A DNA stretch of 64,000 nt from an uncultured Akkermansia sp. (GTDB taxonomy: Bacteria > Verrucomicrobiota > Kiritimatiellia > RFP12 > JAAYNR01). The position numbers and the translations under genes were made by a program. The notes under the pieces are model-generated. The model searched no databases. It worked only from the letters and a program-made list of their open reading frames with translations, and was not told the DNA's origin. Positions 15,936 through 51,291 of the stretch are shown piece by piece. Each line of letters opens with the position of its first letter. The first letter of the stretch is position 1. Location of the stretch: NCBI GenBank assembly GCA_964580075.1, contig CAZOJL010000002.1:6034-70033 (forward strand). The letters run 5' to 3'.

Positions 15936-15960
15936 CGAAACCCTTGGAAGCGCCGAGAAT

Positions 15961-34983: not shown

Positions 34984-35109
34984 GGCACTCTCCTGTTGGA
35001 TCGCACGCGCCGGGGCGCGTGACACGGGTTAGAAACGAACAATAAGTATAAACCAGATGGGCGACGCGCGCAAGCCGGGAACGCAATGGTGCACCGCGTT
35101 TAAGGCCGT

Positions 35110-35838
35110 TTAAGGCCGGGGCTTGTTACGGGCGGCCCAGTCGGCCTGGCGGGCGACACCCATGAGGATATTGACGTCGTCGGTGGTCAGGGCCCCGCGG
35201 GAGAAGATGCGTTGGACGCCCTGCATCATGTGGTCGGTCTTTTCCGGGGTCATGAAGCCGATGAGCAGCAGCATCTCGCGCCACATGTCGAGAAGTTTCA
35301 TCCGGTGTACGGCCAGTGCCGGTGGCGCCTTTTCGCAGGGGGGCGAGTACGCTTCGCTCGCGAGGAACAGCTCGTAGGAGCAAAGCAGAACGGCTTGCGC
35401 GAGGTTGATGGATGTGTAGTTCGTCCCTGTGGGAATGCGGAGGAGATGGGTGCACCGGGCGACCTCGTCGTTCAGCAGCCCTTTGTCTTCGCGACCGAAC
35501 ACCAGCGCGACCGGGCCGCCGTTCGCTAGGGCGAGCAATCCCGGCGCGGCCTCGCGCGGGGTGCGGACATGCTGGCGATAGAGTCCGAGTCGCGCCGTCG
35601 TGCCGACGACGGCCGTGCAGTCGGCAACCGCTTCGTCGAAGGTCTCCACGGTGCGTCGTCCTTCCAGGACCGGCGCGCCGTGGACGGCGAATTTCGACGC
35701 CTCGGCCCAGCCGTCGGCGCAGACCGGTTTGACGAGAACCAGGTCGGAAATTCCAAAATTGGCCATGGCACGGCAGGCGGAGCCGATGTTGCCGCTGTAG
35801 AGGGAACCGACCAGGACGATTCGAATGCGAGAGAGCAT
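35110..35838 (-). CDS. trmJ: SpoU-family tRNA/rRNA 2'-O-methyltransferase (TrmJ-like)
   Basis: MLSRIRIVLVGSLYSGNIGSACRAMANFG N-terminus typical of TrmJ/LasT, and a SPOUT fold region (VALVFGREDKGL). The longer ORF to 35964 would extend into the repeat element. Confidence 0.7.
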   Translation of the reverse strand: MLSRIRIVLVGSLYSGNIGSACRAMANFGISDLVLVKPVCADGWAEASKFAVHGAPVLEGRRTVETFDEAVADCTAVVGTTARLGLYRQHVRTPREAAPGLLALANGGPVALVFGREDKGLLNDEVARCTHLLRIPTGTNYTSINLAQAVLLCSYELFLASEAYSPPCEKAPPALAVHRMKLLDMWREMLLLIGFMTPEKTDHMMQGVQRIFSRGALTTDDVNILMGVARQADWAARNKPRP

Positions 35839-35939
35839 AGGCAGAAAAACTCGTTTCTTTGCGGCGGCGGGGATGAGCGACCCAGGAACGCGGGAACGCG
35901 CGTAATGGAACCCTATTTTATCGGGGACCGGGCGAATGT

Positions 35940-36300
35940 CAACCCAGGTAACAGCAATTCTCATTATGAGGCGATTGGGTCATCGGGGTCGGGGTCGGGG
36001 TCGGTATCGGAATCGGAGTCGAAATTCCGTTGGATTTATCCTAAAAAGGGCAGAAGACTGTGAGACTGTGAGACTGTAAGGATTGGGAGGCAATCGGTTA
36101 TGCAAACGGGATCTGTTCACCATTGGGTGCGTGCGAATAAATCTGTAACCTGTTCATTTTCAACCTCATAGCCTTACAGTCTTACAGCCTATAGCCGTTT
36201 TTAGGTTTATCGATACCGATACCGATACCGACCCCGACGCCGATGGCCCCATCTCCAAAATGAAGGCGCATTTTTCACACGGTTCTGGAAAATTATGCTA
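35940..36300. repeat. MITE-like nested inverted-repeat element. It has a degenerate copy of the 46-mer head (35952-), outer inverted repeats GGGGTCGGGGTCGGGGTCGGTATCGG / CCGATACCGATACCGATACCGACCCCG (35987-36016 and 36211-36243), and inner inverted repeats CTGTGAGACTGTGAGACTGTAAGG / CCTTACAGTCTTACAGCC.
   Basis: Seen directly. The arms are reverse complements of each other and enclose a 23-codon mini-ORF with a GGGAGG Shine-Dalgarno (36099-36170). G4-forming tract at 35987-36005. Confidence 0.65.
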
Positions 36301-36410
36301 TTGTTTGCATGCAACCGTTTTCTTCTAAATCCTTTGCGCCGCATCTTGCACCAAGCCCGATGAGGTCTATTGTCACTGAAGCAACGTACCGCGCTGGTTT
36401 CTGCCACCAC

Positions 36411-39272
36411 ATGACACTAACACCATACCACGCCAAGTATTACGCCTACGAACTCACTCGCCGCTGTTCATCCGACAGCATGGAGAAGTTCGCCGGCGTT
36501 GTCGCCGGCGCCCAGGTCGATCTGAACCCGCACCAGGTCGACGCAGCCCTATTCGCTTTCAACTCGCCACTCTCCCGCGGGGCACTCTTGGCCGACGAAG
36601 TAGGCCTGGGCAAGACCATCGAGGCTGGCATCGTCCTCTCCCAGAAGTGGGCCGAACGCAAACGCAAGATCCTCATCATCACACCGGCCAGTCTCCGCAA
36701 ACAATGGTTCCAGGAGATGGAGGACAAGTTCTTCCTGCCGTCCTGCATTCTCGAAACCCGATCTTACAACGAAGCTATCCGCCAAACCAGCCTACGCCCC
36801 TTCGAGGTGCCTGGAAAACTCGTCATCTGCTCCTACCAGTTCGCCCGCGCGAAAGCATCGGACGTTCAGGCCGTTCCCTGGGATCTCGTAGTCATTGACG
36901 AAGCCCACCGCTTGCGCAACGTCTACAAACCCAACAACGTCATAGCCAACACCCTGAAACAGGCCCTCGCACACGCGCCGAAACTCTTGCTCACCGCCAC
37001 CCCGCTTCAGAACTCCCTTCTGGAACTCTTCGGCCTCGTTAGTTTCATTGACGAACACGCCTTCGGCGACCTCCCGAGTTTCCGCGAACAGTTCGTCAAC
37101 CTCGACCAGCGCCAAGTTTTCGACACCCTCAAGGTCCGCCTCAAACCCATCTGCCAGCGCACCCTTCGCCGCCAGGTTACATCCTACATTCCCTTCACCA
37201 AGCGCCACCCGTTGTTGGAGGAGTTCACGCCAGAAGAGAGCGAGGATCGCCTCTACAACCTCGTCTCGGAATATCTGCAACGCGACAACCTGTTCGCCCT
37301 TCCACCAAGCCAGCGCTCCCTGATGACCCTCGTTCTTCGGAAACTCCTGGCCTCATCCACCTTCGCCATTGCCGGTGCCCTGAACACCATTTCCAACCGC
37401 CTGAAACTGACGCTCCACCGAAAATCGCCGGAACAATCCCTCGAAGAGGAACTGGACCAAGATTACGAAACCCTCGACGAAACTGCCGACGAATGGCAGG
37501 ACGAAAGCGCCGCCGCCGACCTCACAGATGACGACCGCTCCGCTTTGAAACAGGAAATCGCAGACCTCGACGCCTTTGCCACCCTCGCCACCTCCATTCA
37601 CCACAATGCCAAGGGCAAGGCGCTGGTCAAGGCGCTCACTGTCGCCTTTGCAAAGGCTGCCGAACTCGGCGCCCCCCAGAAAGCCGTCATCTTCACAGAA
37701 TCCCGCCGCACCCAGGACTACCTGCAACGCGTTCTCTCAGACAGTCCGTTTGCCGAAGGGATCGTTCTGTTCAACGGATCAAACACGGACGAAGGTTCCC
37801 GCCAGATATACAGCGCCTGGCACGACAAGCACCAAGGAACCGACCGTGTCAGCGGCTCCCGCACGGCCGACATGCGTTCCGCCCTCGTGGACTATTTCAG
37901 AGATCAGGGCCGGATCATGATTGCCACCGAGGCCGGCGCCGAAGGCATCAACCTCCAGTTCTGCTCCCTGATTGTGAACTACGACCTGCCCTGGAACCCC
38001 CAACGCATCGAACAGCGTATCGGCCGCTGTCACCGCTACGGTCAAAAACACGATGTCGTGGTGGTCAATTTCCTCAATCGTAAAAACGAGGCCGACCAGC
38101 GCGTCTACCAACTTCTGGCCGAGAAATTCAAACTCTTCGAGGGTGTTTTCGGCGCCAGCGATGAAATTCTCGGCACCATCGGCGCAGGCGTGGACTTCGA
38201 GAAACGCATCGCCGGCATCTACCAACGTTGCCGCAAGCATGAGGAGATCAGGACCGCATTCGATCAACTCCAACTGGAACTCAACCTCGAAATCAACGAG
38301 GCCATGACCCAGACCCGGCGCAAACTCCTCGAGAACTTCGACGATGAGGTCCGCGAAAAGCTAAAGGTGCGTGACGAAACATCAAAGGCCGTTCTCACCC
38401 GCTTCGAATACACCCTCATGCGCCTTACCCGCCACGAACTGGAGGGCCACGCCGAGTTTATCGATGACGGTTCCTTCCGCCTCACAACCGCCCCCTTTCC
38501 GGCCTTTTCGGGTGTCATCCCTCTTGGCCTGTACGAACTCCCGCGCCGTTCCGGCGAAGCGCACACCTACCGCCTCAGTCATCCTCTCGCCGTCGAGATC
38601 GTCAAGCGCGCCAAGGAACGCGACCTACCGATTTCCGAAGTCTGTTTCCGGTACAGCGAACATGAAGGCAAAGTCACGGCGCTAAAGCCGCTGGTCGGCC
38701 GCTGCGGATGGCTTTCCGTCGCACAGTTCACGGTCGAATCCCTCGATCAGGCCGAAGACCACCTGATACTCGTTGCCACCACAGACGATGGCGCATTGAT
38801 TGACGAAGAAGCCGCCCGCCGCTTGTTTTCCCTGCCAGGTGCCCCCGTCGGCCAGGAGACCACCGCACCCCCACCACCGGCCCTGCAAGACCTTGTCCAG
38901 CAGCGCCAGACTGCCATCACACGCACCATCTCCGAACGCAACGCTCGATTCTTCGAGACCGAGGCCACCAAACTGGAAAACTGGGCCGACGACGTGAAAC
39001 TCGGCCTCGAACGCGACATCAAGAACCTTGACCGACAAATCCGGGAAACCCGACGTGCGGCCACCGTCGCACTCACCTTAGAGGAGAAACTCGCCGGCCA
39101 GAAACAGATCAAAGCCCTTGAATCCCAGCGCAGCGAGAAACGCCGCTCCCTGTTCGAAGCACAGGATCAGGTGGACCGCCAACGCGCAGAGTTCATCTCG
39201 ATAATCGAAGGGAAACTGAAACAACAGACCGACCTCTCAACCGTCCTGACACTTCAATGGAGACTCGAATAA
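36411..39272 (+). CDS. SNF2-family (RapA/HepA-like) DEAD/DEAH helicase with a C-terminal coiled-coil extension
   Basis: SNF2_N motifs (LLADEVGLGKTIEAG, LVVIDEAHRLRN), helicase C domain (LIVNYDLPWNPQRIEQRIGRCHRYGQK), and a ~400-aa C-terminal region with coiled-coil character. Start uncertain; the ORF opens at 36309. Confidence 0.8.
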   Translation: MTLTPYHAKYYAYELTRRCSSDSMEKFAGVVAGAQVDLNPHQVDAALFAFNSPLSRGALLADEVGLGKTIEAGIVLSQKWAERKRKILIITPASLRKQWFQEMEDKFFLPSCILETRSYNEAIRQTSLRPFEVPGKLVICSYQFARAKASDVQAVPWDLVVIDEAHRLRNVYKPNNVIANTLKQALAHAPKLLLTATPLQNSLLELFGLVSFIDEHAFGDLPSFREQFVNLDQRQVFDTLKVRLKPICQRTLRRQVTSYIPFTKRHPLLEEFTPEESEDRLYNLVSEYLQRDNLFALPPSQRSLMTLVLRKLLASSTFAIAGALNTISNRLKLTLHRKSPEQSLEEELDQDYETLDETADEWQDESAAADLTDDDRSALKQEIADLDAFATLATSIHHNAKGKALVKALTVAFAKAAELGAPQKAVIFTESRRTQDYLQRVLSDSPFAEGIVLFNGSNTDEGSRQIYSAWHDKHQGTDRVSGSRTADMRSALVDYFRDQGRIMIATEAGAEGINLQFCSLIVNYDLPWNPQRIEQRIGRCHRYGQKHDVVVVNFLNRKNEADQRVYQLLAEKFKLFEGVFGASDEILGTIGAGVDFEKRIAGIYQRCRKHEEIRTAFDQLQLELNLEINEAMTQTRRKLLENFDDEVREKLKVRDETSKAVLTRFEYTLMRLTRHELEGHAEFIDDGSFRLTTAPFPAFSGVIPLGLYELPRRSGEAHTYRLSHPLAVEIVKRAKERDLPISEVCFRYSEHEGKVTALKPLVGRCGWLSVAQFTVESLDQAEDHLILVATTDDGALIDEEAARRLFSLPGAPVGQETTAPPPPALQDLVQQRQTAITRTISERNARFFETEATKLENWADDVKLGLERDIKNLDRQIRETRRAATVALTLEEKLAGQKQIKALESQRSEKRRSLFEAQDQVDRQRAEFISIIEGKLKQQTDLSTVLTLQWRLE

Positions 39273-39457
39273 TGCATAAAGAAACCCCGTCAGAACAACT
39301 CGCCGCCAAGATCGCCGACCGCCTAGTCAAAGAAGGTCTCTTGCCCCCGGATGCCGCCACCAGACTCAAACCCAAACTGGCCCAAGGAACCGTTACCCAA
39401 GATGACTGGAGACTTCCAATAGAACTGGGAGACAAGAAGAAGGAGGCTGCAAAATGA
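39272..39457 (+). CDS. Small hypothetical protein (~61 aa), translationally coupled between the SNF2 helicase and the ATPase
   Basis: TAATG overlap with the SNF2 stop and ATGA overlap with the ATPase start. Lys/Glu-rich, no recognisable domain. Confidence 0.35.
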   Translation: MHKETPSEQLAAKIADRLVKEGLLPPDAATRLKPKLAQGTVTQDDWRLPIELGDKKKEAAK

Positions 39458-41784
39458 GCATTCCAAGTCTAGTGAGCAATCCAGGTCTTCGGCAACTCAC
39501 CGTCGAGAACCTCCGCGGAGCTGTGGTCCCGTTCACGCTCCCTTTTGAGAAGAACAAGAAACTCACAATCGTCTACGGAGAGAATGCCACAGGCAAGTCA
39601 ACCATTTGCGATGCATTCGACTTTCTCGGGAAAGGAAATGTCGGCTCATTGGAAAACCGCGGACTGGGCCGCTCCGAAAGATACTGGCCGTCTATTGGAA
39701 AACCCGCCGGCGCTGTTTCGGTGACACTCGAAACCACCGACCTCGCCAAGTGCTGCGCAAAGATCGGAACAGGAGGTGTCACAGTCACGCCCCCGATCCC
39801 ACGTCCACGGGTCGAAGTGTTGCGCCGCAAACAAATACTCAAACTGATTGAGGCAACCGAGAGCGAACGCTACACGGAAATCCGCCGCTTCATTGACGTG
39901 TCGGCCGTGGAAACATCGGAAGGCACCCTTAACCAGTTGATCAAAGACCTGAACGCCAACCGCAACATTGCCGCAGCACGGTTAACAGAGAACCTAGACG
40001 CACTGACCAACTACTGGAACGCGGCCAGTCAACCAGGAAGCAATGCCCTGACATGGGCAACCACAGAAGCAAAACGAAACCAAACCACTTTAGACAAGGA
40101 GGCGGCCGCCCTGGCTTCACTTCAAGCCGCCTATGCCAGACTCACAGACTACCCGGCGCAACTCACGGCAACCACCCACACCCAGAATGCTGCAAAGGAG
40201 GCGGATGATGCCGCACAGGTCGCCGCAAAACAGTGCGCCCAAACGATTGCTGCAGACGCTGATGAGGTAATCGGCGTACTCCAAGCTGCCCAGACGTACC
40301 TGCACATACACCCGACACCCAAGGTCTGCCCTCTCTGCGAGAGCGCCGAAAAGACGGCAGGTCTGAACCAACGTATTTCACAACGCCTTGGTGCATTCGC
40401 GGCCCTCCAATCGGCACAGGGTCAAGTGAAGACTACCGCCACCGCCGTCCAACGCGCGGAGGCCCAACTCGAAGTCCTGAAGGCCGACGCAAAACGTAAC
40501 GCCGAAACATTTGAGAAAGCACGCACCGACTTTGCCTGGCCCGCGGACATACCACTACCAACATCACCCGCCCCCACGGACATCACCGCACTTGCGACAT
40601 GGCTTGCCGATACCGGTCCCCTGCCTGCCCAATGGAAACAAGCCGAAACCACCCGCCTGGACAAAAAACAGTTCATTGCCTCATTAAATGGGGCACTGAA
40701 AACATACAACGAGAATGTCAATACACAGAAGGAACTGGACGTTCTCCTGCCGAAACTCGATCACGCCTTGAAGATCGTCATTGAGGAACGCCGTGACTTC
40801 ACAGGAAAGATACTGGCGAACATCGCCACAGAAGTCGGCCGCATGTACGAACTCGTTCACCCAGGCGAAGGCCTGAGCAAGATCAGCTTGCAACTCGATC
40901 CCAAGAAACGTGCCTCTTTAGGAATTGGAGCCCCATTCGGCACCATGAAGGAGACCCCGCCGCAAGCCTACTTCAGCGACTCGCACCTCGACACACTAGG
41001 CTTGTGCATTTACTTGGCACTCACCGGACGAGATGAACCGGAGAAGATCATTCTCATAATTGACGACGTACTTGCGAGCGTTGACGAACCCCACGTTCAA
41101 CGACTCATCGAGATGTTGTACGACGAGACGGCAAAGTTCCGGCATTGTCTGATCACCACCCATTACCGCCCATGGAAAGAAAAGTTCCGATGGGGTTGGC
41201 TCAAGAATGCGCAATGCCAGTTTATCGAGTTGAAGGACTGGACGACAACCGAAGGCATCACACATGCCAACAGCGTGCCGGATATTGACCGCCTAAAGTC
41301 ACTTATAGCAGAGAAATCACCTGATTCCCAACTCGTATGCTCCAAAGCCGGCGTGATGTTGGAAGCGGCACTCGAGTTCCTGACCTTACTGTACCAATGC
41401 CGAGTTCCCCGAAAACCCGGCGATACATACACAGTCGGCGACCTCCTACCGGCGATTGACGACAAACTGCGCAAGTCCCTGCAAGTAGAGTGCGCCGTGA
41501 CAGACAAAGCCGGGACAGTCACATACCAAACGAAACAACTCGGCCCAATATTCGATGAACTGGACCGAATCTTCCAACTCCGGAATGTCTTCGGCTGCCA
41601 CTTCAACGAGATATCCTTCACCCTTCTGAACTCGGATGCCCTGACGTTTGGCAAGAAGGTGCTGGAGTTGATCGAAACCCTCGCCGATCCCGATGCCGGA
41701 TGGCCCCGCAGCGACAAGTCCGGCAACTACTGGGCGACCGCCAAGGAAACACGCCGGTTGCACCCCTTAAAGAAACCCAAGTGA
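39454..41784 (+). CDS. ABC/SMC-like (AAA_15/AAA_23-type) ATPase with a long coiled-coil insert and a C-terminal domain of unknown function
   Basis: N-terminal Walker A (GENATGKST) and a ~350-aa Ala/Gln-rich coiled coil. ABC-signature-like FSDSHLDTLGL, Walker B/D-loop IILIIDDVLASVDEPH, and H-loop ITTH. Confidence 0.75.
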   Translation: MSIPSLVSNPGLRQLTVENLRGAVVPFTLPFEKNKKLTIVYGENATGKSTICDAFDFLGKGNVGSLENRGLGRSERYWPSIGKPAGAVSVTLETTDLAKCCAKIGTGGVTVTPPIPRPRVEVLRRKQILKLIEATESERYTEIRRFIDVSAVETSEGTLNQLIKDLNANRNIAAARLTENLDALTNYWNAASQPGSNALTWATTEAKRNQTTLDKEAAALASLQAAYARLTDYPAQLTATTHTQNAAKEADDAAQVAAKQCAQTIAADADEVIGVLQAAQTYLHIHPTPKVCPLCESAEKTAGLNQRISQRLGAFAALQSAQGQVKTTATAVQRAEAQLEVLKADAKRNAETFEKARTDFAWPADIPLPTSPAPTDITALATWLADTGPLPAQWKQAETTRLDKKQFIASLNGALKTYNENVNTQKELDVLLPKLDHALKIVIEERRDFTGKILANIATEVGRMYELVHPGEGLSKISLQLDPKKRASLGIGAPFGTMKETPPQAYFSDSHLDTLGLCIYLALTGRDEPEKIILIIDDVLASVDEPHVQRLIEMLYDETAKFRHCLITTHYRPWKEKFRWGWLKNAQCQFIELKDWTTTEGITHANSVPDIDRLKSLIAEKSPDSQLVCSKAGVMLEAALEFLTLLYQCRVPRKPGDTYTVGDLLPAIDDKLRKSLQVECAVTDKAGTVTYQTKQLGPIFDELDRIFQLRNVFGCHFNEISFTLLNSDALTFGKKVLELIETLADPDAGWPRSDKSGNYWATAKETRRLHPLKKPK

Positions 41785-41843
41785 CACCTCTACTGTTCAC
41801 AAAACCCGGACTTAACGACCGACCGGAAGGAACCAAACGCACT

Positions 41844-43646
41844 ATGAGCCCCTTAACTCCGGCATACCTGGCCATACTTAAGAAACATCTCGCTGACAGG
41901 TACGTTGTTCACCTGCCACCACTCGCAAAGAACAGCAAAAACTCCGATGAAGTGGAGAAGAAAAACCTTTCGCGGGCTTTCAGCGCCTTCACATTGCATC
42001 ACCTTACTGGCGTTTCTGAAAAAGAAGCCGCAGAGTCAGTTGTGGACGATTTTGAAGACGTTGGTTTGGACGCCGTGTATTACTTCGCACCAACAGAGAC
42101 ACTTTTCCTGGTACAGTCCAAACTGAAAGCATCGGAAGAATTCAGCCAAGACGAAGCACTGGCGTTTTGTCAAGGCATACGCAAACTGATCAAAGAGGAC
42201 TTCAACGGGTTCAATGAACACGTGACACGACGCCAGACGGAAATCGAAGGCGCATTGGAACTATGCCGTGAGATCCAACTTGTTGTCGCACACACCGGTT
42301 CCGGCATCAGCAAACATGCTCGAACCGCTTTAGACGAACTCCGCCAGGATGAGACCCACGACGAACTACGGTTCACCCCCCCAATCCTGGATTTTGATGC
42401 AAACAAAGTAGTAAACGGCCTGCAAGGAAGTCATGCCTACAAACGCGTCGACACGAAACTTGTTGTCAGGAACTGCAAACACATTGCCGAACCAAGATCG
42501 ACATACTTCGGTCTAGCCAATATCATAGACTTGGTCGCACTGCACAAGACACATGACAAGGCACTCTACGACAAGAACATCCGGACATTTCTCGGTCACG
42601 AGACAGACGTGAATAAGGCTATCCAGAAGACATTAGCCGAGAAACCTGACCACTTTATCTACCTGAATAACGGCGTCACAGTGCTCTGCCAACAGATCGA
42701 CCCGAAGGACACTAACAAGAAGGAAGGCAGGCGCTTGGTAATCAAGGGGTTTTCCGTGGTGAACGGCGCCCAGACGATTGCGTCGTCCGCAAAGTATGTG
42801 GCCGATAACCCGGGTGCAAATATAGATTTTGCCCGCGTTTTGATCACACTGATTGAAGCTGCCGCTGACGGCGACTTTGGGAAGTCCGTCACCAGAGCCC
42901 GTAATCATCAGAATGAAGTCAAACAGTCCAACTTCGCTGCCCTTGACGACGGTCAGGAGAGACTTCGCAGGGATTTGGCGCAACTTGATATTCAGTACGC
43001 ATACAAGGCAGGAAGAACCGAAGGACCAGATGATCCCAACCGAATTCAGATTGAGGAAGCAGTTCAGGCATTGGCGCTACTTCAGGGCGACCCGCGATAC
43101 GCCGTCCGGTTGAAGAAGCAACCCGCTGACCTATTGAACACGGAGTCCGACCAGTACAAGGAACTTTTCGGTTCATCGCTCACTGCTTTCCAACTACTCA
43201 ATGCGGTTCTTGTAAATCGTTACGTCCAACGCCGGATTGGAGAAGAAGTCGGGAGAACGGGCGGCCAGGAAAGACTCGTTTACAAGCACGGGAACCACGT
43301 GATCGCATGGATACTCGCCAAGTGTGTAATGAAGGCCATTAACGAACCGGCACGCATAGACAACGCTAAACTCAACACTTTACTTAGCGTGCCGTTCGAT
43401 GAAATCAGACAAAAGCAATGGGACAAGGCCCAACCAGCCCTTGCGCAACGCGGACCGTTGTCTTTGTTCCGCAACCAAACCCATACCATCCCATTGATGC
43501 AACACCTCATGATCGACTTCTACGGTCTGACAAACGATCCAGTCATAGGACACAAACTCGCACAACAGCAACCTGGCGACCTCTATCCAACGCACCTCTT
43601 CGCGTACCTGATTCAACGGGCGCCCCAGATCGGGGGACTCTCATGA
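41844..43646 (+). CDS. AIPR-family (abortive infection phage resistance) protein
   Basis: N-terminal AIPR signature (SRAFSAFTLHHL..VDDFEDVGLDAVYYF..LFLVQSKL) and the central motif FIYLNNGVTVLC..GFSVVNGAQT characteristic of PF10592-type proteins. GGAAGG Shine-Dalgarno before the ATG at 41844; ATGA overlap with the downstream mod. Confidence 0.7.
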   Translation: MSPLTPAYLAILKKHLADRYVVHLPPLAKNSKNSDEVEKKNLSRAFSAFTLHHLTGVSEKEAAESVVDDFEDVGLDAVYYFAPTETLFLVQSKLKASEEFSQDEALAFCQGIRKLIKEDFNGFNEHVTRRQTEIEGALELCREIQLVVAHTGSGISKHARTALDELRQDETHDELRFTPPILDFDANKVVNGLQGSHAYKRVDTKLVVRNCKHIAEPRSTYFGLANIIDLVALHKTHDKALYDKNIRTFLGHETDVNKAIQKTLAEKPDHFIYLNNGVTVLCQQIDPKDTNKKEGRRLVIKGFSVVNGAQTIASSAKYVADNPGANIDFARVLITLIEAAADGDFGKSVTRARNHQNEVKQSNFAALDDGQERLRRDLAQLDIQYAYKAGRTEGPDDPNRIQIEEAVQALALLQGDPRYAVRLKKQPADLLNTESDQYKELFGSSLTAFQLLNAVLVNRYVQRRIGEEVGRTGGQERLVYKHGNHVIAWILAKCVMKAINEPARIDNAKLNTLLSVPFDEIRQKQWDKAQPALAQRGPLSLFRNQTHTIPLMQHLMIDFYGLTNDPVIGHKLAQQQPGDLYPTHLFAYLIQRAPQIGGLS

Positions 43647-45397
43647 CCAGACACCTCAAACTCGAACTCACCTGGATCGGCAAGGAGAACCGGCCCCGCC
43701 TGGAGCCGCGCATCCTCCTCGAAGATCCGGAGAAGTCGTATCACGCCGCACATCGGGTGAAGGAATGGCCGCAAGAGAACGCAAAAAACACAAAAGGCTC
43801 AGACTCTTTGCGCTCTCTGTGTTCTTTCGCGGCTAAGAATCCCTCCGATGTCGGCGATCTCTTCGACAACCGCCTCATCTTCGGCGACAACCTCCTCGCC
43901 CTCAAGGCACTTGAGCAAGAGTTCACCGGGAAAATTAGGTGCGTATTCATTGACCCACCCTACAACACGGGTAGCGCATTTACACACTACGACGATGGAG
44001 TTGAGCACTCTCTTTGGCTTTCTCTCATCAGAGATCGACTGGAGATGTTACGTCAACTCCTTGCCGATGACGGTTCTCTTTGGATCACTATTGACGACAA
44101 TGAATCTCATTATCTTAAGGTTTTGTGCGACGAAGTGTTTGGAAGGCAGAACTTCGTTGCCAATGTGGTCTGGCAAAAAAAATCGTCACCGCAACCAAAC
44201 GCGGTTTGGCTTTCCGACAGTCACGACCACATCCTTGTTTACGCGAAAAATAAATCTATATGGCGTCCAAATATGTTGGAGCGCAGTGTTGAAGCGAATT
44301 CGCGTTACAAGAATCCAGACAACGATCCCCGTGGTATGTGGACGTCTGGTGACTGCACAATCAGCTTGACCGGCGGGCAACGCGGAGCGCAGTTCGCTAG
44401 GACCGGTGTTTCGGAGAACATCTATGAAATTCAAACGCCGTCTGGGCGCAAGGTGTCTCCTCCACCTGGAACATGCTGGCGTTTTAGTAAGAAGCGATAT
44501 GAAGAACTGGTAAAAGAATACCGGATTTATTTTGGTGACACCGGCAATAACGTTCCAAGATACAAGAGATTCCTTTCAGAAGTTCAGGAAGGTATTGTCT
44601 GCATGACAGTGTGGCTTCGAACAGAAGTGAGCGATAATCAGGACGCGAAGCGAGAAGTAATGGTATTCAATTCCGAGCAGGTGTTTTCTACACCGAAACC
44701 CGAAAGGCTTTTACAACGCATCGTTGAGTTAGCGTCGAATCCCGGTGACTGGGTGCTCGACTCCTTCGCCGGTTCCGGCACTACGGGTGCGGTCGCTCAC
44801 AAGATGGGCCGGCGCTGGATCATGGTGGAACTGGGCGAGCATTGCCACACACACATCATTCCCCGACTCAAAAAAGTTATTGACGGTGAAGATTCTGGCG
44901 GCATCACGAAGTCCGTGGATTGGAAAGGCGGCGGTGGGTTCCGCTACTACCGGCTCGCGCCGTCGCTGCTGGAAAAGGACAAGTGGGGGCAGTGGGTCAT
45001 CAGCAAGGAGTTTAATGCCGCCATGTTGGCCGAGGCGGCCTGTAAACTGGAAGGGTTCACCTACGCCCCGAGCGACTCTGTCTATTGGCAACACGGGCAC
45101 TCCACCGAACGTGATTTCATCTATGTGACCACCCAGAATCTGAACGCCGCCCAACTTGCGCAGTTGAGCGATGAAGTCGGCCCGGATCGCACCTTGCTCG
45201 TGCTTTGCGCCGCCTTTCGCGCACCACGTGGCGACGCCGCCGAACGCTACCCGAACCTCACGGTGAAGAAGATTCCCAAACAGGTGCTTTCCCGTTGCGA
45301 ATGGGGGCATGATGATTACAGTCTAAACGTGGAGAACTTGCCCAAGGCACCGCCGAAGTTGGGGCAACAGGATCTGTTTGCGGAGGTTGGCAAATGA
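43643..45397 (+). CDS. Type III restriction-modification DNA methyltransferase (Mod subunit, N6-adenine/N4-cytosine class)
   Basis: LKLELTWIGKENRP N-terminus typical of Type III Mod, catalytic DPPYN motif, and a SAM-binding LDSFAGSGTTGAVA motif separated by a large target-recognition region. Confidence 0.85.
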   Translation: MTRHLKLELTWIGKENRPRLEPRILLEDPEKSYHAAHRVKEWPQENAKNTKGSDSLRSLCSFAAKNPSDVGDLFDNRLIFGDNLLALKALEQEFTGKIRCVFIDPPYNTGSAFTHYDDGVEHSLWLSLIRDRLEMLRQLLADDGSLWITIDDNESHYLKVLCDEVFGRQNFVANVVWQKKSSPQPNAVWLSDSHDHILVYAKNKSIWRPNMLERSVEANSRYKNPDNDPRGMWTSGDCTISLTGGQRGAQFARTGVSENIYEIQTPSGRKVSPPPGTCWRFSKKRYEELVKEYRIYFGDTGNNVPRYKRFLSEVQEGIVCMTVWLRTEVSDNQDAKREVMVFNSEQVFSTPKPERLLQRIVELASNPGDWVLDSFAGSGTTGAVAHKMGRRWIMVELGEHCHTHIIPRLKKVIDGEDSGGITKSVDWKGGGGFRYYRLAPSLLEKDKWGQWVISKEFNAAMLAEAACKLEGFTYAPSDSVYWQHGHSTERDFIYVTTQNLNAAQLAQLSDEVGPDRTLLVLCAAFRAPRGDAAERYPNLTVKKIPKQVLSRCEWGHDDYSLNVENLPKAPPKLGQQDLFAEVGK

Positions 45398-46617
45398 AGA
45401 AGAACCCCGCGCTTTATGAACGTGTCCGGCAGATTCTAGAATCTGCCCGGTCAACCGTGGCCCGGTCGGTGAACACGACCCAGGTGGTAGCGAATTGGCT
45501 GATCGGCCAGGAGATTGTGGAGGAAGAGCAAAAGGGAAAGCGCCGGGCTGACTACGGGAACGAGTTGATCATCGACCTGGCAAAACGATTGACGGCGGAT
45601 TTTGGAAACGGGTACTCCAAGGACAATCTCTTCTGGTTCCGCCGATTGTATCAAGGTTATCCGGAACTGCTGGCCCGGCAGAAATTTGACGCACTGCGTC
45701 AAATTTCCGACGCAGTGCCTCGGAAATCTACAGGCACAGGGACTTTTGCAGCATTTCCGTCAAAAACGCGCACCGTGCATAGTTGTTCTGTTGCGGAGAT
45801 TGGCTACGCAGTGCGTAGCCAATCCTGGAAACCCGGCCAACTCCATCCAACCCTCTCCTGGACCCACTACCGGACACTACTGCGCGTGGATAAACCCGAG
45901 ACCCGCGCCTTTTATGAAATCGAGGCAATCAAGAACAATTGGGGGGCGCGGGAACTGGAGCGGCAAATTTGCAGCCTGTTCTATGAACGACTGGCGTTGA
46001 GTCGGGACAAAAAGGGATTGATGCGTCTGGCGACAAAAGGGCAGGTTGTTCAGAAGCCAACGGATGTGTTCAAGGACCCAGTGGTCATGGAATTTCTGGG
46101 GCTTCCGGAATCGCCGAGACTGACCGAAACCGATCTGGAGACCGCCTTGATCAACAATCTCCAGTCATTTCTGCTGGAACTGGGCAAGGGGTTCGCCTTT
46201 GTGGCGCGACAGGGCCGACTGACACTGGACGGCGATCATTTTTACGTGGATCTTGTTTTCTATCATACGATCCTGAAGTGCTACGTGATCATTGATCTCA
46301 AGACCGGCAAACTCACACATCAGGACCTTGGGCAACTTCAACTGTACGTCAACTACTACGACCGGGAGAAACGCGCCACGGGCGATAATCCAACATTGGG
46401 GCTGATTCTCTGCGCCGAGAAGAACGACACCGTGGTGCGGTACACCTTGGGCAAAGACCAGAAAAAGCAGATATTCGCCAGCCGTTATCAGATGTACCTG
46501 CCGACCGAGGCCCAACTGCGGGCCGAGATACGCCGGGAAGTCCGATTGTTGCAAGCGCCAGAGATTGCAACGAAAAAACGCATGGAGCGTAAAGGACGAA
46601 TTGCTGCCCTAAGTTGA
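45394..46617 (+). CDS. DUF1016/YhcG-family protein with a C-terminal PD-(D/E)XK nuclease fold
   Basis: YhcG N-domain (LSWTHYRTLL..RAFYEIEAIKNNWGARELERQI) and C-terminal PD-(D/E)XK signature (DGDHFYVDLVFYH..YVIIDLKTGK). ATGA overlap with the mod stop. Confidence 0.7.
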   Translation: MKKNPALYERVRQILESARSTVARSVNTTQVVANWLIGQEIVEEEQKGKRRADYGNELIIDLAKRLTADFGNGYSKDNLFWFRRLYQGYPELLARQKFDALRQISDAVPRKSTGTGTFAAFPSKTRTVHSCSVAEIGYAVRSQSWKPGQLHPTLSWTHYRTLLRVDKPETRAFYEIEAIKNNWGARELERQICSLFYERLALSRDKKGLMRLATKGQVVQKPTDVFKDPVVMEFLGLPESPRLTETDLETALINNLQSFLLELGKGFAFVARQGRLTLDGDHFYVDLVFYHTILKCYVIIDLKTGKLTHQDLGQLQLYVNYYDREKRATGDNPTLGLILCAEKNDTVVRYTLGKDQKKQIFASRYQMYLPTEAQLRAEIRREVRLLQAPEIATKKRMERKGRIAALS

Positions 46618-46710
46618 ATACAGTTCATCTGGACAATTTACCATGTCCACGTCAAAACCGGAGCAGATCGAATGGCTATGAATGACATAACCGCACCCGA
46701 AGACCAACAA

Positions 46711-46787
46711 CCACTTCGCGCCTTCGCGTCTTCGCGTGAAATCCCAACGCAGACAGTCTCACGCGAAGGCGCGAAGGCGCGAAGTGG
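46711..46787. repeat. 29-bp near-perfect inverted repeat (CCACTTCGCGCCTTCGCGTCTTCGCGTGA / TCACGCGAAGGCGCGAAGGCGCGAAGTGG) with a 19-nt loop, immediately 5' of the GxxExxY start. A direct copy of the left arm lies 3' of the gene at 47172-47196.
   Basis: Seen directly; the arms are reverse complements with 1-2 mismatches. Confidence 0.7.
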
Positions 46788-46791
46788 GGAG

Positions 46792-47223
46792 ATGAACATC
46801 GAAGAGGTTTCGGCGATCATCGTGGATTGTGGTTACAAATTGCATGTTGAGGTAGGACCTGGCCTTTTGGAAAGCGTGTATGAAGTGGTCCTGGCCAAGA
46901 TGCTGGAACAACGCGGTTTGCGCGTGCGACGACAGGTTCCCGTGCCGATTGAATTAATGGGGTTGACGTTTGACGAAGGGTTTCGCGCGGATTTGATTGT
47001 CCATGATCGGGTGCTGGTGGAGTTGAAGTCGGTAGAAAACCTGGCCCCTGTTCACGGCAAGCAAGTCCTCACTTATCTCCGCCTTTTAAAGATGCCGCTA
47101 GGCTTGTTGATTAATTTTAGCGCCGCAACCTTCAAGGATGGCGTAAAGCGCATCGTCAACCAACATCATGATTTCGCGTCTTCGCGTCTTCGCGTGAACC
47201 AAGCCCTTTCGGAGAATCCATGA
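46792..47223 (+). CDS. GxxExxY-family protein (small PD-(D/E)XK-like nuclease-fold protein)
   Basis: GPGLLESVYE motif, plus DLIVHDRVLVELKSV and LLINF motifs that match the GxxExxY family consensus. GGGGAG Shine-Dalgarno upstream. The ORF continues past the family core to an ATGA overlap with res; the upstream ORF portion (46672-) is the translated hairpin. Confidence 0.65.
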   Translation: MNIEEVSAIIVDCGYKLHVEVGPGLLESVYEVVLAKMLEQRGLRVRRQVPVPIELMGLTFDEGFRADLIVHDRVLVELKSVENLAPVHGKQVLTYLRLLKMPLGLLINFSAATFKDGVKRIVNQHHDFASSRLRVNQALSENP

Positions 47224-49916
47224 AGCCCCAAGTCAACGCCATTGCCGGACGACTGAGTCTGCGCCAGCCCCAACGCCGCGCGTTGGAAATCCTCGACCGC
47301 GTTACGGAGATCGTCCCGCCCAAGAAGGGCGCTGACATCGCAGCCGCCTTGGCGGTCATCCGGTCCGAGTTTCCAACCGTCACCGATTTTGAGCGCGACT
47401 TTCCCTCCCTCTGTTTTGCCCTTGCCACTGGCGTTGGCAAGACGCGCCTCATGGGCGCTTTCATCACCTATCTCTATCAGGCATACGGCATCAACAACTT
47501 TTTCGTCATGGCTCCGAATCTGACGATCTACAACAAGTTGATCACGGACTTCACGCCCAACACCTCCAAGTATGTTTTCAAGGGAATCGCCGAGTTTGCC
47601 ACGGAGCCGCCGGAAATCATCACCGGCGACAACTACGAGGCCAAGGCAGGCACCTTGTTTGACGAGTTGATCCGCTGCCGGGTGAACATCTTCAATATCT
47701 CGAAGATCAACTCCGAAGTCCGAGGCGGCAAGTCGCCGCGCATCAAACGCCTCTCCGAGTACATCGGCGAGAGCTATTTCGAGTACTTGGCCAATCTGCC
47801 CGACCTTGTTCTCGTCATGGATGAATCGCACCGCTACCGGGCCAGCGCGGGCGTGCGGGCAATCAACGAACTCAAGCCCGTCCTGGGGCTGGAACTCACG
47901 GCCACGCCGTTTGTCGAGACCGGGAAGGGGCCTGTAGCGTTCAAGAACGTTATTCAGGATTACCCCCTTGGCAAGGCCATGGCCGATGGCTTTGTAAAGG
48001 AACCGGCCGTTGTCACGCGCAAGAATTTCAACCCGGCCGGCATGACGCCCGAAGCCGTGGAGCGCATGAAACTGGAGGACGGCGTCCGCCTGCACGAGAG
48101 CATCAAGGTGGAACTGGAGACGTACGCGCGCGAAACGGAAAACCGCCTCGTAAAACCGTTTGTCCTGGTCATCGCCCGCGATACCACGCACGCCAAGCAA
48201 CTCGTTGACCTGCTCCAATCCGAAACCTTCTTCGATGGCCGCTACAAGGAGAAGGTCATCCAGGTCGATTCCAGCAAGACCGGCGCCGAAGAAGACGAGA
48301 TGGTTGAGCGCTTGCTCAAGGTCGAGCACACGGACGAACCAACCGAAATTGTGATTCACGTCAACATGCTCAAGGAGGGGTGGGACGTCACCAACCTCTA
48401 CACCATCGTCCCTCTTCGTGCCGCCAATGCCCGCACCCTCATCGAGCAGTCCATCGGCCGCGGCCTGCGCCTGCCATACGGCAAGCGCACAGGCGTCACC
48501 AGCGTGGATCGCCTGAACATCGTAGCCCATGACAAGTTTCAGGAGATCGTGGACGAAGCCAAGAAACCCGGCTCTGCCATCCATCTCCAGCAGGTCATCC
48601 TGGCCGACGACACACTTAGCCAGAAGACCGTCACCATGGTCTCCCAGTCCCAACTCGCCAATCGCCTGGGCCTGACTGTGGATCAACCGACACCCAGCAC
48701 GCTACAACCCGAGGCAGCGGCCAAGCCGATATTTACACAGCCGGAAGAACAGAAGATCGCGCAACTCACCTACGAGGCCATCAAGAGGCTCGAAAGTCAG
48801 CCCACGGCCGTGCCGGGCGTCTCATTCCTGTCGAACCCGGACGTGCAGGCAGCCATTCAAAAGGAAGTGGCAAGCCGGTATCAACCCCCGGTTCAGATGG
48901 AGATGGATGTCGTCACCGCGAAGCCAGACATTGCGGCCATTGTTGCCGCCACGGCAGAACTGGTCATCCAGCAGACTATCGATATTCCCCGAATTCTCGT
49001 GGTGCCCGCCGGCAAGGTCCAATCCGGCTTCAAGCCATTTGTCCTGAAACTGGATACGCTCAATTACCCGCCGGTCTCCGAAGAACTTTGGGCCAAACAC
49101 CTGCGCACCGATCAGGTTGATGTCATCGCCATGGGCAAGGGCGGTACTGAGGAAGAGCGCCTGGAAGACTACGTTGTTTCCGGCTTGGTTGATTTCGACG
49201 ACATCTCATACGACGCGCACGCAGATCTTCTGTACGATCTGGCAGGTCAGGTTGTGCGCCATCTCCGGTCCTACCTCAAGGAAGAAGCGGAGACTCGAAA
49301 GGTTCTCCGGTGTTATCAGCGGGACATCGCCCGGTTTGTCCATGCCCAGATGCAGGAGCACTACTGGGAAGCGGCTACCTCTCTCGACGTGACGATCACC
49401 AAGGGGTTCACCGAACTCAAACGAAGCGCCTACACCACCGATGCCCGAGATCCGGTCAAGGATTATCGGTATTCACTGGCGGACAAGAGCAACATGCCCA
49501 AGCACCTCTTCGGCGGTTTCACAAAATGCCTCTATCCGGTCCAGAAGTTTCAGTCCGACCCGGAGCGCAAGATGGCTGTGATCCTCGAACGCGAATCCGA
49601 CAAATGGTTCCGGCCGGCCAAGGGCCAATTCCAGATCTACTACAAGTCCGGCGCCGAGCAACCCGAATATCAGCCAGACTTCGTGGCCGAGACGGCCGAC
49701 GTCATCTACATGCTCGAACCCAAACGCCGCGACGAGTTGCAGGATGCCGACGTGCAGGCCAAGAAAGCCGTTGCTGAAATCTGGTGCCAGCACGCCACCG
49801 CACACGCCAAGACCTACAACGGCAAGCCCTGGCAATACCTCCTCATCCCCCACGACGCCATCGCCGACAACATGACGCTCGAAGGGCTCGCCGCCCTGTT
49901 CAAGGACAACGAATGA
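47220..49916 (+). CDS. Type III restriction enzyme Res subunit (SF2 helicase-nuclease)
   Basis: Helicase motif I ALATGVGKTR, motif II LVLVMDESHRY, a helicase C region, and a C-terminal endonuclease region. ~900 aa, positioned with mod. Confidence 0.85.
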   Translation: MKPQVNAIAGRLSLRQPQRRALEILDRVTEIVPPKKGADIAAALAVIRSEFPTVTDFERDFPSLCFALATGVGKTRLMGAFITYLYQAYGINNFFVMAPNLTIYNKLITDFTPNTSKYVFKGIAEFATEPPEIITGDNYEAKAGTLFDELIRCRVNIFNISKINSEVRGGKSPRIKRLSEYIGESYFEYLANLPDLVLVMDESHRYRASAGVRAINELKPVLGLELTATPFVETGKGPVAFKNVIQDYPLGKAMADGFVKEPAVVTRKNFNPAGMTPEAVERMKLEDGVRLHESIKVELETYARETENRLVKPFVLVIARDTTHAKQLVDLLQSETFFDGRYKEKVIQVDSSKTGAEEDEMVERLLKVEHTDEPTEIVIHVNMLKEGWDVTNLYTIVPLRAANARTLIEQSIGRGLRLPYGKRTGVTSVDRLNIVAHDKFQEIVDEAKKPGSAIHLQQVILADDTLSQKTVTMVSQSQLANRLGLTVDQPTPSTLQPEAAAKPIFTQPEEQKIAQLTYEAIKRLESQPTAVPGVSFLSNPDVQAAIQKEVASRYQPPVQMEMDVVTAKPDIAAIVAATAELVIQQTIDIPRILVVPAGKVQSGFKPFVLKLDTLNYPPVSEELWAKHLRTDQVDVIAMGKGGTEEERLEDYVVSGLVDFDDISYDAHADLLYDLAGQVVRHLRSYLKEEAETRKVLRCYQRDIARFVHAQMQEHYWEAATSLDVTITKGFTELKRSAYTTDARDPVKDYRYSLADKSNMPKHLFGGFTKCLYPVQKFQSDPERKMAVILERESDKWFRPAKGQFQIYYKSGAEQPEYQPDFVAETADVIYMLEPKRRDELQDADVQAKKAVAEIWCQHATAHAKTYNGKPWQYLLIPHDAIADNMTLEGLAALFKDNE

Positions 49917-49954
49917 GAGCGAGATCTAAAGAATCTCCTTGATGTGGAGCGCAT

Positions 49955-50055
49955 TCTTTTTCGTCGATTTCGGTCCCGATCCCGATCCCGATCCCAATCC
50001 CGATTTGGATCCCGATAGCGGCTGCCAGTGTTAGAATTGCTGGTATGGGCAGTGT
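49955..50055. repeat. Reverse-orientation copy of the intergenic repeat family: (GATCCC)n tandems plus the exact 46-mer at 49997-50042
   Basis: Reverse complement of 49997-50042 equals 5749-5794 at 46 of 46 positions. Confidence 0.75.
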
Positions 50056-50085
50056 GTGGCATTGCCTTCAGTCCGAATCTTCGCT

Positions 50086-51291
50086 ATGATCTCCCGCACA
50101 TACGCCATGGCACGTGATCAAACAAATCAAACGGAGCGGCTCGAGAAGTTTCTCGTCCGCCTGATCCAGCAGCCGGGGGCCGACCAGGGACACACCGGGT
50201 CGATCCGGCTGTTGCTGGCGTTTTTGAAAGGGCTGGCGCATCTTTTCCGCGGCGCGGTGCAGACGCGCCTGTGTTTTTATGAGGCGGGTATCTTGCGCCG
50301 TTATCCCCTGGGGTGCCAGGTGATCAGCGTGGGGAACATCACGGCGGGCGGGACGGGCAAGACCCCGGTGGTGGAGATCTTCGCCCGCGAACTTCATAAG
50401 TCGGGACGGAAAGTCGCCATCCTCAGCCGTGGCTACCGCAAGAAGGAATTGCCGTGGTATCAGCGGGTCTTCAGAGAAACCCTCGAACCGCCGCGGGTCG
50501 TGAGCGACGGTCACCACCTGTTGCTCGACAGTGAGATGGGCGGGGACGAGCCCTACATGCTGGCGTCCAACCTGCCGGGCGTGGTGGTGCTGGTCGACCG
50601 CAACCGCGTCAAGAGCGGGCGTTACGCGATCAAAACGTTCGGGTGTGACACGCTCGTGCTCGACGACGGCTTTCAGTATCAGAAGCTCAAGCACCGGCTC
50701 GAATTGGTGCTGATCGACAAGACCAACCCCTTTGGCAACGGCAATGTTCTGCCGCGCGGTGTATTGCGCGAACCGGTGCGCAACCTGAATCGGGCGGACT
50801 TTATCTTCATCACCAAGTCTGACGGGAAGTCGGATGCGCTGCGCGCCCGGATCCGCGAGTTGAACGACCACGCCGAAATCATCGAATGCTGTCATCGGCC
50901 CCAATACCTGCGCAACGCTTACAGCCAGGAGACGTTGCCCCTTTCGTGGTTGGACGGCAAGAAGGCCGCCGCCCTCTCCGGGATTGCGGTGCCGCAAAGT
51001 TTCGAAGGTTTTCTGCGCGGCATGGGGGCGCGATTGGTGGCGTGCGACCGCTTTGCCGACCATCACCGGTACGAGGCGCAAGAGATCATTGACGCCGTGA
51101 ACCGGGCGGATGAACTGGGGGCCTGCGCGTTGATCACGACCGAGAAGGACGCCGTACGGCTGCCGCGGCTGGCGAGTTCGGCCGTGCCGGTCTACTACTT
51201 GCGGGTGGAGATCGAGATCCTCTCCGGGGCCGAGAATTTCCACGAAGCGGTCCGGCATATCTGCACGCACGGGGCGCGGAAAGGGGCGTAG
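50086..51291 (+). CDS. lpxK: Tetraacyldisaccharide 4'-kinase
   Basis: [16 protein letters not shown]-loop and SRGYRKK motifs. Start ambiguous (50056, 50086 or 50107). Confidence 0.75.

Follow-up and report, generated by a model that had tools for sequence, protein, structure and literature searches.

A probable horizontally acquired defence island between trmJ and lpxK of an uncultured Akkermansia, built around a recurrent five-gene operon

ABC ATPases with a HEPN domain that are embedded in restriction-modification (R-M) operons are an established theme and have been read as a suicidal second line of defence (PMC3710099; Anantharaman et al., 2013). A second theme concerns genes nested in multi-gene defence systems, which are usually defence genes themselves; this pattern has been described for Hma, BREX, DISARM and type I R-M systems (bioRxiv 10.1101/2024.01.29.577857). 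Both themes bear on the region described here, which lies between the housekeeping genes trmJ and lpxK in a 64,000-nt stretch (the window) of contig CAZOJL010000002.1 (assembly GCA_964580075.1) from an uncultured Akkermansia sp. The names borne by the nearest relatives of its LpxK place the organism in the Kiritimatiellia. We consider it probable that this region is a horizontally acquired defence island, that its backbone is a single circulating five-gene operon to which three passenger genes have been added, and that the repeats at its edges are resident elements of the host. As a genomic island it is of a known, routine kind, namely a defence cluster acquired without a visible mobility gene. 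The backbone, judged from gene order and protein identity, reads as one conserved and widely transferred operon that encodes a SNF2 helicase, a 61-residue protein, an ABC-HEPN ATPase, a Mod methyltransferase and a Res endonuclease.

The interval between trmJ and lpxK holds eight closely spaced open reading frames (ORFs), each on the + strand. Coordinates are those of the public gene calls of the same contig.

36411..39272, + strand: DrmD-like SNF2 helicase, 953 aa, first gene of the operon (PF00176, 120 bits; PADLOC DrmD PDLC02619, 698 bits)
39272..39457, + strand: conserved 61-aa protein, overlapping both neighbours by 1-4 nt and called in public assemblies
39454..41784, + strand: Rad50/SMC-like ABC ATPase, 776 aa, with a coiled coil, a CPxC apex and a predicted C-terminal HEPN domain
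41844..43646, + strand: AIPR (AbiU-like) abortive-infection protein, passenger between ATPase and Mod (PF10592, 133 bits against a cutoff of 25; PADLOC AbiU, E 6e-39)
43643..45397, + strand: type III-like Mod methyltransferase, beta class (PF01555, 164 bits; PADLOC MTase_III, 731 bits)
45394..46617, + strand: DUF1016/YhcG PD-(D/E)XK protein, embedded between Mod and Res (PF06250, 197 bits; PF17761, 121 bits; PADLOC candidate PDC-S02, 467 bits)
46792..47223, + strand: GxxExxY gene (TIGR04256, 127 bits; PF13366, 125 bits)
47220..49916, + strand: type III-like Res, last gene of the operon (PF04851, 75 bits; PADLOC REase_III PDLC03648, 689 bits)

The catalytic motifs of SNF2, ATPase, Mod and Res can be read intact in the translations. 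The SNF2 frame, open from 36309, shows the Walker A motif GLGKT and a DEAH box, and in Mod the order of motifs is that of the beta class, with FIDPPY before FAGSGTT. Res combines a superfamily 2 (SF2) helicase (GVGKT, DESH) with a C-terminal nuclease motif (PDF...LEPK), and scores 35 bits against the NCBIfam type III endonuclease equivalog PRK15483, for which the cutoff is 564. The 61-aa protein returned zero matches in Pfam or PADLOC. The original prediction had counted eight genes and assigned defence-type functions to all of them; the count stands, and the assignment holds for six of the eight, the exceptions being GxxExxY and the 61-aa protein, for neither of which a role in defence is demonstrated.

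The composition of the region sets it apart from its surroundings. In a sliding profile, 1-kb windows over 35.5-50.5 kb form a clean trough with GC of 0.50-0.59, which is deepest at 42-43 kb (0.504) and 44-45 kb (0.506), while windows outside the trough have 0.61-0.63 up to 36 kb (0.63 for 35001-36000) and 0.61-0.70 past 50 kb. Gene by gene, the eight island genes have a GC content of 0.51-0.59 (mean 0.543) against 0.59-0.71 (mean 0.635) in ten flanking genes (Mann-Whitney p 9e-5), and the difference is larger at third codon positions (GC3 0.63±0.07 against 0.80±0.02; p 5e-5); among the long island genes the AIPR gene has the lowest GC3 (0.58). Synonymous codon usage also differs between island and flanks (chi2 550, df 41), the island preferring NNC codons and the host NNG codons, as seen for GCG (0.16 in the island, 0.50 in the host) and CAG (0.52 and 0.83). 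Both flanks have an excess of G on the + strand regardless of gene orientation, and the island has none. On the coding strand, the GC skew of the island is negative, and since the skew of the same operon is about 0 in other hosts it is not intrinsic to the operon. These analyses bear out the low-GC island that had been read from the sequence, in direction if not in value: the eyeball estimates were slightly too low for the island and slightly too high for some of the flanks, where lepA, for example, has 0.586. The tRNA scan of the region found none, and the Pfam domains of the island ORFs include no integrase or transposase, in agreement with what the original prediction had said of mobility genes and tRNAs. 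Rfam families were likewise absent, and neither structured RNA nor tRNA was found at the island borders or at 5527-5750.

Homologs of the ATPase numbered at least 566. The best 120, the identical entry aside, are 56-73% identical to it; all but one are 767-786 aa long, and their sources include Opitutaceae, Verrucomicrobiae and Gammaproteobacteria. In every context read the ATPase sits in the same block, and the order of the five genes is the same in six contexts beside the window (L175/L176, L177, L178, L179, L181 and L182; L-numbers are labels of the contigs and loci read for comparison). Compared with the window, intact SNF2 genes are about 62-84% identical (50-80% for the fragments in L177), the ATPases 57-73%, the Mod proteins 46-60% and the Res proteins 66-75%. 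An ORF of 58-63 aa occupies the slot of the small protein in L175, L176, L177 and L179, with 52-78% identity, and one of this length is likewise called there in L181 and L182. The clean form of the operon is found in L181, among housekeeping genes (SNF2 950 aa, small ORF 58, ATPase 770, Mod 576, Res 895), and other contexts depart from it by gain or decay. In L182, from a Verrucomicrobiae metagenome-assembled genome (MAG), a 23S_rRNA_IVP gene and DUF1016 have been added between Mod and Res; in L177 an AAA_15 ATPase follows the ABC ATPase and DUF1016 precedes Res; in L178, a gammaproteobacterial MAG, AIPR stands between SNF2 and the ATPase and a GmrSD gene follows Res. In L175 and L176 the passenger slot is taken by Abi_2, and Mod and Res are decayed; L179 retains part of Mod along with SNF2, the small ORF and the ATPase. 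The GC content of the operon is 0.53-0.57 whatever the host, 5-9 points below the flanks in GC-rich hosts; it therefore looks like a frequently transferred operon that has not been ameliorated. Carriage on plasmids was rejected: in PLSDB only ATPases at 30% identity were found, and the one context read, from Hymenobacter, has no Mod, Res or SNF2 annotated nearby.

As an observation on one of these loci, L177 (1-20114) holds two tandem copies of the system. The upstream copy is decayed, with fragmented Mod, DUF1016 and Res, and a frameshifted SNF2 after its Res leads into the intact downstream copy.

Gene by gene, the backbone resembles several described systems, and departs from each of them. 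Mod and Res are like those of type III R-M systems of the EcoP15I kind: in Mod, an N6_N4 methyltransferase, DPPY precedes FxGxG as is usual in the beta class; mod lies upstream of res; and in Res an SF2 helicase is joined to a PD...ExK motif at the C-terminus. Sequence-specific methylation and ATP-dependent cleavage of unmodified DNA would be the predicted activities. Unlike in type III R-M, Mod and Res are always accompanied here by SNF2, the 61-aa protein and the ABC-HEPN ATPase, and in the window two embedded genes separate them. Mod of the window also carries a 29-codon in-frame insertion, WPQENAKNTKGSDSLRSLCSFAAKNPSDV, at about 43766-43852, which is absent from Mod of L177, L178 and L179. 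The possibility that this insertion is a hairpin element was rejected, the DNA being loosely palindromic with no significant structure (z -0.5).

SNF2 comes closest to the DrmD models of class 1 DISARM and is, as there, paired with an adenine/N4-type methyltransferase. Membership of DISARM was rejected, because SNF2 scores 711 bits against NCBIfam DrmD_b, under the cutoff of 950, and the eight genes include no DrmA, DrmB (DUF1998) or DrmC (PLD). The combination of helicase, methylase and ATPase follows the same logic as the BREX-related Hma/DUF499 systems (Payne et al., 2021, 2024; PMC12839542). Hma, however, consists of an m5C methyltransferase (HmaB) and a DUF499 AAA+ ATPase (HmaC), whereas the island encodes an N6/N4 methylase of type III and a Rad50-like ABC ATPase, plus Res; membership was rejected as the methylase is a PF01555 type III enzyme and the ATPase matches neither HmaC nor DUF499. 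MZA, Lamassu and MADS gave only weak matches to single genes, their defining genes failed, and they were rejected as well.

The closest parallel for the ATPase is provided by PrrC and RloC, with which it shares an ABC ATPase of the Rad50/SbcC kind at the N-terminus, a coiled coil whose apex carries CxxC as that of RloC does, a C-terminal HEPN-like domain with an Rx5H motif, and a position within an R-M operon (PMC3710099; Anantharaman et al., 2013). It differs from them in having no significant similarity to PF13166/AAA_13 (13.7 bits where the cutoff is 36, confined to the P-loop), so that it is not a member of this family by sequence; in its R-M partner, which is type III-like and not type Ic; and in its SNF2 and small-protein neighbours, which are obligatory here and form no part of the PrrC and RloC systems. 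An anticodon-nuclease role would be putative. Some homologs of the ATPase have precomputed AAA_13 matches, their strength not being stated.

By sequence, the ATPase matches AAA_23, SMC_N and LmuB only weakly, with the motifs GENATGKST and IIDDVLASVDEPH readable in the translation. In an AlphaFold2 model built from 31 homologs (mean pLDDT, the predicted local distance difference test, 76.6), a long antiparallel coiled coil interrupts the ABC head; its helices span 150-468 and its apex lies at residues 286-300. Foldseek comparison of this model returned Rad50 (7zr1, E 1e-9), followed by LmuB of Lamassu (9ux7), JetC and other SMC heads. At the apex of the coiled coil, C292-P-x-C295 is invariant among homologs and resembles the zinc hook of Rad50 and RloC. 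The last ~200 residues gave zero sequence matches in Pfam, PADLOC or the PDB, and the lead to their identity came from fold comparison only. Modelled alone, this domain reached a pLDDT of 66 and a predicted template modelling score (pTM) of 0.69. It contains the invariant stretch R710-N-x-x-G-C-H716, which fits the Rx4-6H ribonuclease (RNase) motif of HEPN domains as defined in PMC3710099, including the usual polar residue after the arginine, and the domain is predicted from its model to be HEPN. From the PrrC/RloC-type architecture and the known association of such proteins with R-M operons, we infer that the ATPase may be a latent RNase governed by a DNA-sensing ABC/coiled-coil module and by its R-M partners.

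None of Pfam, NCBIfam r20 and PADLOC-DB 2.0 has a system that covers the five-gene architecture, and a limited literature search found no named system of this kind, which is no proof of absence. We tentatively put forward that the block might be a distinct defence system, unnamed in the libraries searched, in which a type III-like R-M system is obligatorily coupled to a DNA translocase and an RloC-like suicide RNase and serves as a scaffold for passengers, and which in this host may have entered via a cruciform-forming hexamer palindrome. If true, entry through such a palindrome would point to an insertion route independent of a recombinase.

The three remaining genes, AIPR, DUF1016 and GxxExxY, appear from their positions to be passengers embedded at junctions between operon genes. 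The slot after the ATPase is taken by AIPR in the window, by Abi_2 in L175 and by an AAA_15 ATPase in L177, and L181 and L182 have nothing there; DUF1016 is in the same slot in L177 and L182 and is absent in L181 and L178. As in systems with embedded defence genes, the operon scaffold nests unrelated defence genes in the same orientation, and by analogy the filling of junctions by AIPR, DUF1016 and GxxExxY matches the pattern described above. The N-terminal domain of the DUF1016 protein is longer than its model (189 residues against 137 model positions), the extra stretch falling at about residues 100-140; it behaves as a variable linker, as L177 has such a stretch too, of different sequence.

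GxxExxY looks like a small cassette (46711-47223). Directly upstream of its start, at 46711-46787, lies a perfect 29-bp hairpin of CTTCGCGY octamer repeats (inverted pair 97%; fold -39.9 kcal/mol, z -9.95), and a direct copy of the octamer array (96%) is found at 47173-47198, at the 3' end of the gene, where it overlaps the start of res. In L182 (13890-14503) the 23S_rRNA_IVP gene, which encodes a four-helix bundle, is flanked by inverted heptamer arrays (AGCGGTC/AGCGATC). The likeness between these arrays and the tandem-array hairpin of GxxExxY suggests a shared, undescribed insertion route for small genes.

The genes that flank the island belong to the host.

35110..35838, - strand: trmJ, left flanking housekeeping gene (TIGR00050 TrmJ/YjtD, 191 bits with the cutoff at 167, the alignment beginning at residue 43; GC3 0.81)
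50086..51291, + strand: lpxK, right flanking housekeeping gene (PF02606, 283 bits; TIGR00682, 188 bits)

The start of trmJ is probably M43 of a longer ORF that reaches 35964, and the protein has 242 aa in public assemblies. lpxK opens an lpxK-murJ-murG block that is kept in the nearest relatives. Neighbourhoods of lpxK were collected from 80 GTDB loci (LpxK profile search of genome contigs) and six metagenome loci from three closer relatives at 83-90% LpxK identity, and those of trmJ from 80 loci (TrmJ search of metagenome contigs), giving ~170 loci of relatives in all. No island gene was found beside lpxK in the 80 and six loci or beside trmJ in the 80 loci. Together with the recurrence of the operon at 57-84% protein identity in unrelated bacteria, this absence bears out the claim that the region is a compositionally foreign defence island. 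The two flanking genes are not adjacent in any of the ~170 loci, trmJ never being within 10 kb of lpxK in the 80 GTDB loci. The conserved neighbourhood is lpxK-murJ-murG only; the neighbours of trmJ are not conserved, and the gene upstream of lpxK differs in each close relative: at 90% LpxK identity it encodes a CBM9 protein and is accompanied by gap/pgk, at 86% it encodes a fucosidase, and at 83% it is leuS. The sole match to a defence gene among these loci is a Res-like gene (48% identity) ~2 kb downstream of trmJ in L105 (12906-14603).

Contigs of the same species were found by exact look-up of LpxK, TrmJ and the ATPase in ENA, JGI and Logan. Every one that is long enough (L081, L082, L169-L174 and L183-L186) carries the island with identical junctions. 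Shorter contigs stop inside the palindrome at the left border, at 35979, 35988, 36175 and 36244. More generally, independent short-read assemblies (L172, L174, L187-L192) repeatedly end in the hexamer arrays at both borders (35979-36244 and 50006), and the Logan contig L172 (13,773 nt) runs from arm L2 of the left element to the right hexamer array and contains just the island genes and their spacers. The likeliest cause of the breaks is a polymorphism in array length. An alternative junction was rejected as their cause, since up to the break these sequences do not differ from the window; hence the breaks are no evidence of an empty site. Neither direct repeats nor att sites of at least 9 nt were found between the two junctions. 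With no direct repeat of this length, no integrase or transposase domain and no tRNA, an integrase/att-type integrative element was rejected.

The borders of the island are marked by repeat elements, whose intact reference form (E1) lies elsewhere in the window.

5749..5891, no strand: E1, intact reference repeat element, between a transglutaminase-like gene and ftsH(-folP)
35952..35962, - strand: motif at the outer end of the left element (+ strand: CAGCAATTCTC), paired in inverted orientation with AGAATTGCTG at 50033-50042
35961..36260, no strand: left boundary element, a nested, self-contained 300-nt palindrome with hexamer and octamer arms
49958..50042, + strand: right boundary element, a solo hexamer arm with a TCCCGA array at 49974-50016, ending in TAGAATTGCTG and holding a 46-mer shared with E1

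E1 reads CAGCAATTCTA, 16 nt, (GGGATC)n, loop, (GACCCC)n, 33 nt, TAGAATGGCTG, and folds with -29.6 kcal/mol (z -2.8 to -3.8). Its junction, upstream of ftsH, is an ordinary housekeeping one, and no island is present there. The 46-mer occurs exactly at 5749-5794 (-) and 49997-50042 (+), with 0 such matches expected by chance, and the similarity around it extends to 54 nt (96%). Compared with arm A of E1 (5749-5826), the right arm has one mismatch and three extra hexamers, and the similarity ends sharply at ...TTGCTG. It stands without a partner arm and forms no structure by itself (z -0.2), and a 12-nt variant in hexamer copy number was found at this border in one assembly. The left element is built differently. 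Its hexamer arms, L1 (TCGGGG type, 35983-36022) and L2 (CGATAC/CGACCC, 36210-36243), are complementary over 34 nt (88%); inside them, octamer arms (AGACTGTG) at 36055-36077 and 36177-36200 surround a core of ~97 nt, and the DNA folds with -76 kcal/mol (z -7.7). With the E1 family the left border has in common only the 10-nt end CAGCAATTCT (35952) and the hexamer arrays. The core of this palindrome (36078-36176) contains no detectable gene or RNA family, and may be the remnant of a small cassette that has been lost.

The window thus contains two complete elements and one solo arm, at three motif-bearing loci. The end motif occurs 4 times in 64 kb against 0.9 expected, and 3 times in 2.04 Mb of relatives' loci, which is chance level; exact tandem arrays of 6-8-mers are ~7-12x denser here than in relatives, and neither such arrays nor hexamer elements were found at the operon loci or their borders in the other hosts examined. 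Because the repeats are rare in relatives and absent at operon borders elsewhere, they are specific to the host and were not imported with the operon. They resemble REP/BIME (repetitive extragenic palindrome/bacterial interspersed mosaic element) or MITE (miniature inverted-repeat transposable element) repeats in being short, genome-specific intergenic palindromes that are present in several copies, their ends conserved and their arms nearly identical between loci far apart. Unlike in these, the arms are tandem arrays of hexamers (elsewhere heptamers or octamers), and neither a target duplication nor a REP-associated tyrosine transposase (RAYT) or other transposase was seen.

Of what the original prediction had said about these repeats, the exact inverted 46-mer at 5749 and 49997 was recovered by the repeat search, and the left copy proved degenerate as described, with just the 10-nt end and the hexamer arrays preserved. 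The statement that the island is bounded by inverted copies applies loosely, to the inverted 10-nt end and the architecture of hexamer arrays, and does not apply in the sense of true copies. A role of the repeats as a recombination hotspot or as remnants of the insertion mechanism was not established: an intact copy stands by ftsH without an island, none is found at operon borders elsewhere, direct repeats of at least 9 nt are absent, and the left repeat is a palindrome of its own, the right one consisting of a single arm. Taken together, the evidence points to elements resident in the host.

Several points weigh against the account of an acquired operon bordered by resident repeats. There is no island-free allele among the contigs read and no conserved adjacency of trmJ and lpxK, so that insertion at this site is deduced and not seen. 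The nearest sampled operon (L175/L176) is just 72-84% identical to that of the window, and the functional coupling of the five genes is deduced from their co-occurrence, in seven contexts only. Finally, elements stand at both borders although the 64 kb contain only three motif-bearing loci; by a rough estimate over ~45 junctions, this would happen by chance in ~3 of 990 cases, and some link to insertion is therefore possible.

That last point also counts in favour of an unlikely alternative, in which the island entered the centre of a pre-existing E1-type palindrome between trmJ and lpxK; the palindrome, being cruciform-prone, would be the hotspot, and its halves would now bracket the island. 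The outermost ends do form a perfect 10-nt inverted pair (CAGCAATTCT at 35952, AGAATTGCTG at 50033), the order of the arms in the flanks is that of E1 in reverse orientation, and the right arm has no partner of its own. The left arm, however, is already paired with L2 and forms a complete palindrome alone. Joining the left and right arms in silico gives an E1-like hairpin with paired end motifs (-42.6 kcal/mol, z -6.3), but this does not discriminate, since controls showed that any hexamer arm pairs with any opposite arm. Moreover, the junctions have neither direct repeats nor a duplication, and no empty site was found among the contigs used for comparison.

In another, improbable reading, the repeats are the terminal inverted repeats of a MITE-like, non-autonomous unit of which E1 is the empty, 143-bp form, and the 14-kb cargo was mobilised in trans by a transposase with its gene elsewhere. 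The right arm ceases to resemble arm A of E1 exactly at ...TTGCTG, an end as sharp as is typical of element termini; the near identity of the two arms (one mismatch and a three-hexamer indel) suggests recent copying; and the element is specific to this genome (4 motifs in 64 kb, compared with 3 in the 2.0 Mb from relatives). The near identity of the arms could, however, equally well stem from gene conversion between repeats already resident, and neither E1 nor the island shows a target-site duplication. The inverted ends measure merely 10-11 nt, the left end is far more diverged than the right, the island contains no transposase, and the same operon occurs elsewhere without such ends.

That the region is native, its low GC resulting from amino-acid composition and expression level and its repeats being ordinary regulatory DNA (promoter or terminator modules), is very improbable: lepA is nearly as low in GC (0.586), sigma70-like promoters abut the motif at trmJ and ftsH, and a AGAATTGC-like word lies upstream of lpxK in L004, but GC3 and synonymous codon choice differ strongly and independently of amino-acid content, the operon is 57-84% identical in Gammaproteobacteria, Verrucomicrobiae and others, where LpxK of equally distant taxa is 55-60% identical and in another context, the island genes are absent from the locus in all relatives examined, and the motif is at chance level in relatives and in one copy (5749, - strand) faces no gene. 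The promoters themselves lie just outside the motif, at trmJ (TTGACA-16-TAAAAT, 11/12, at 35942-35915) and likewise at ftsH, and the element is therefore upstream of the promoters and not a promoter itself. A reading of TAGAATKGCTG plus hexamer array as a lineage-wide promoter module was rejected on this position of the promoters, on the 3 occurrences in 2.04 Mb and on the copy that faces no gene.

On the favoured reading, that of a horizontally acquired island between resident repeats, the foreign DNA amounts to ~13.7 kb (roughly 36258-49957), or 14.09 kb from motif to motif. As it has no mobility gene, its arrival would most likely have been by recombination using host functions, and the palindromes would be either the site of entry or later colonists of the junctions. 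Once established, Mod would methylate the sites of the host and Res would restrict unmodified DNA, possibly aided by the SNF2 motor. The ABC-HEPN protein might act as a latent, second-line suicide RNase in the style of PrrC/RloC, released upon sensing DNA damage or interference by a phage. The operon, conserved in length and order across phyla, unites restriction with a predicted abortive-infection RNase, and is a clonable candidate for studying how first-line and suicide defences are coupled. Hairpins of short tandem arrays recur at the edges of the island, at the GxxExxY cassette and at other intergenic sites, and are possible marks of DNA gain.

Several such arrays lie away from the island. 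An exact tandem 12-mer, (GGCGTGAGGGTT)2, is found at 5708-5732, outside the left end of E1, in a spacer faced by no gene. A palindrome of heptamer arrays, (TCGGGGT)4/(CCTGAAC)3, occupies 15955-16070 (z -8.8), between the genes of a MiaB-like radical-SAM protein and a hybrid histidine kinase. It is followed by a hairpin, GCGCTTGCA...TGCAAGCGC, of which a 38-nt inverted copy (92%) is present at 5527-5564, after the transglutaminase-like gene. A similar hairpin lies upstream of lpxK in the relative L083, and the GCGCTTGCA...TGCAAGCGC hairpin looks like a recurrent terminator-like module.

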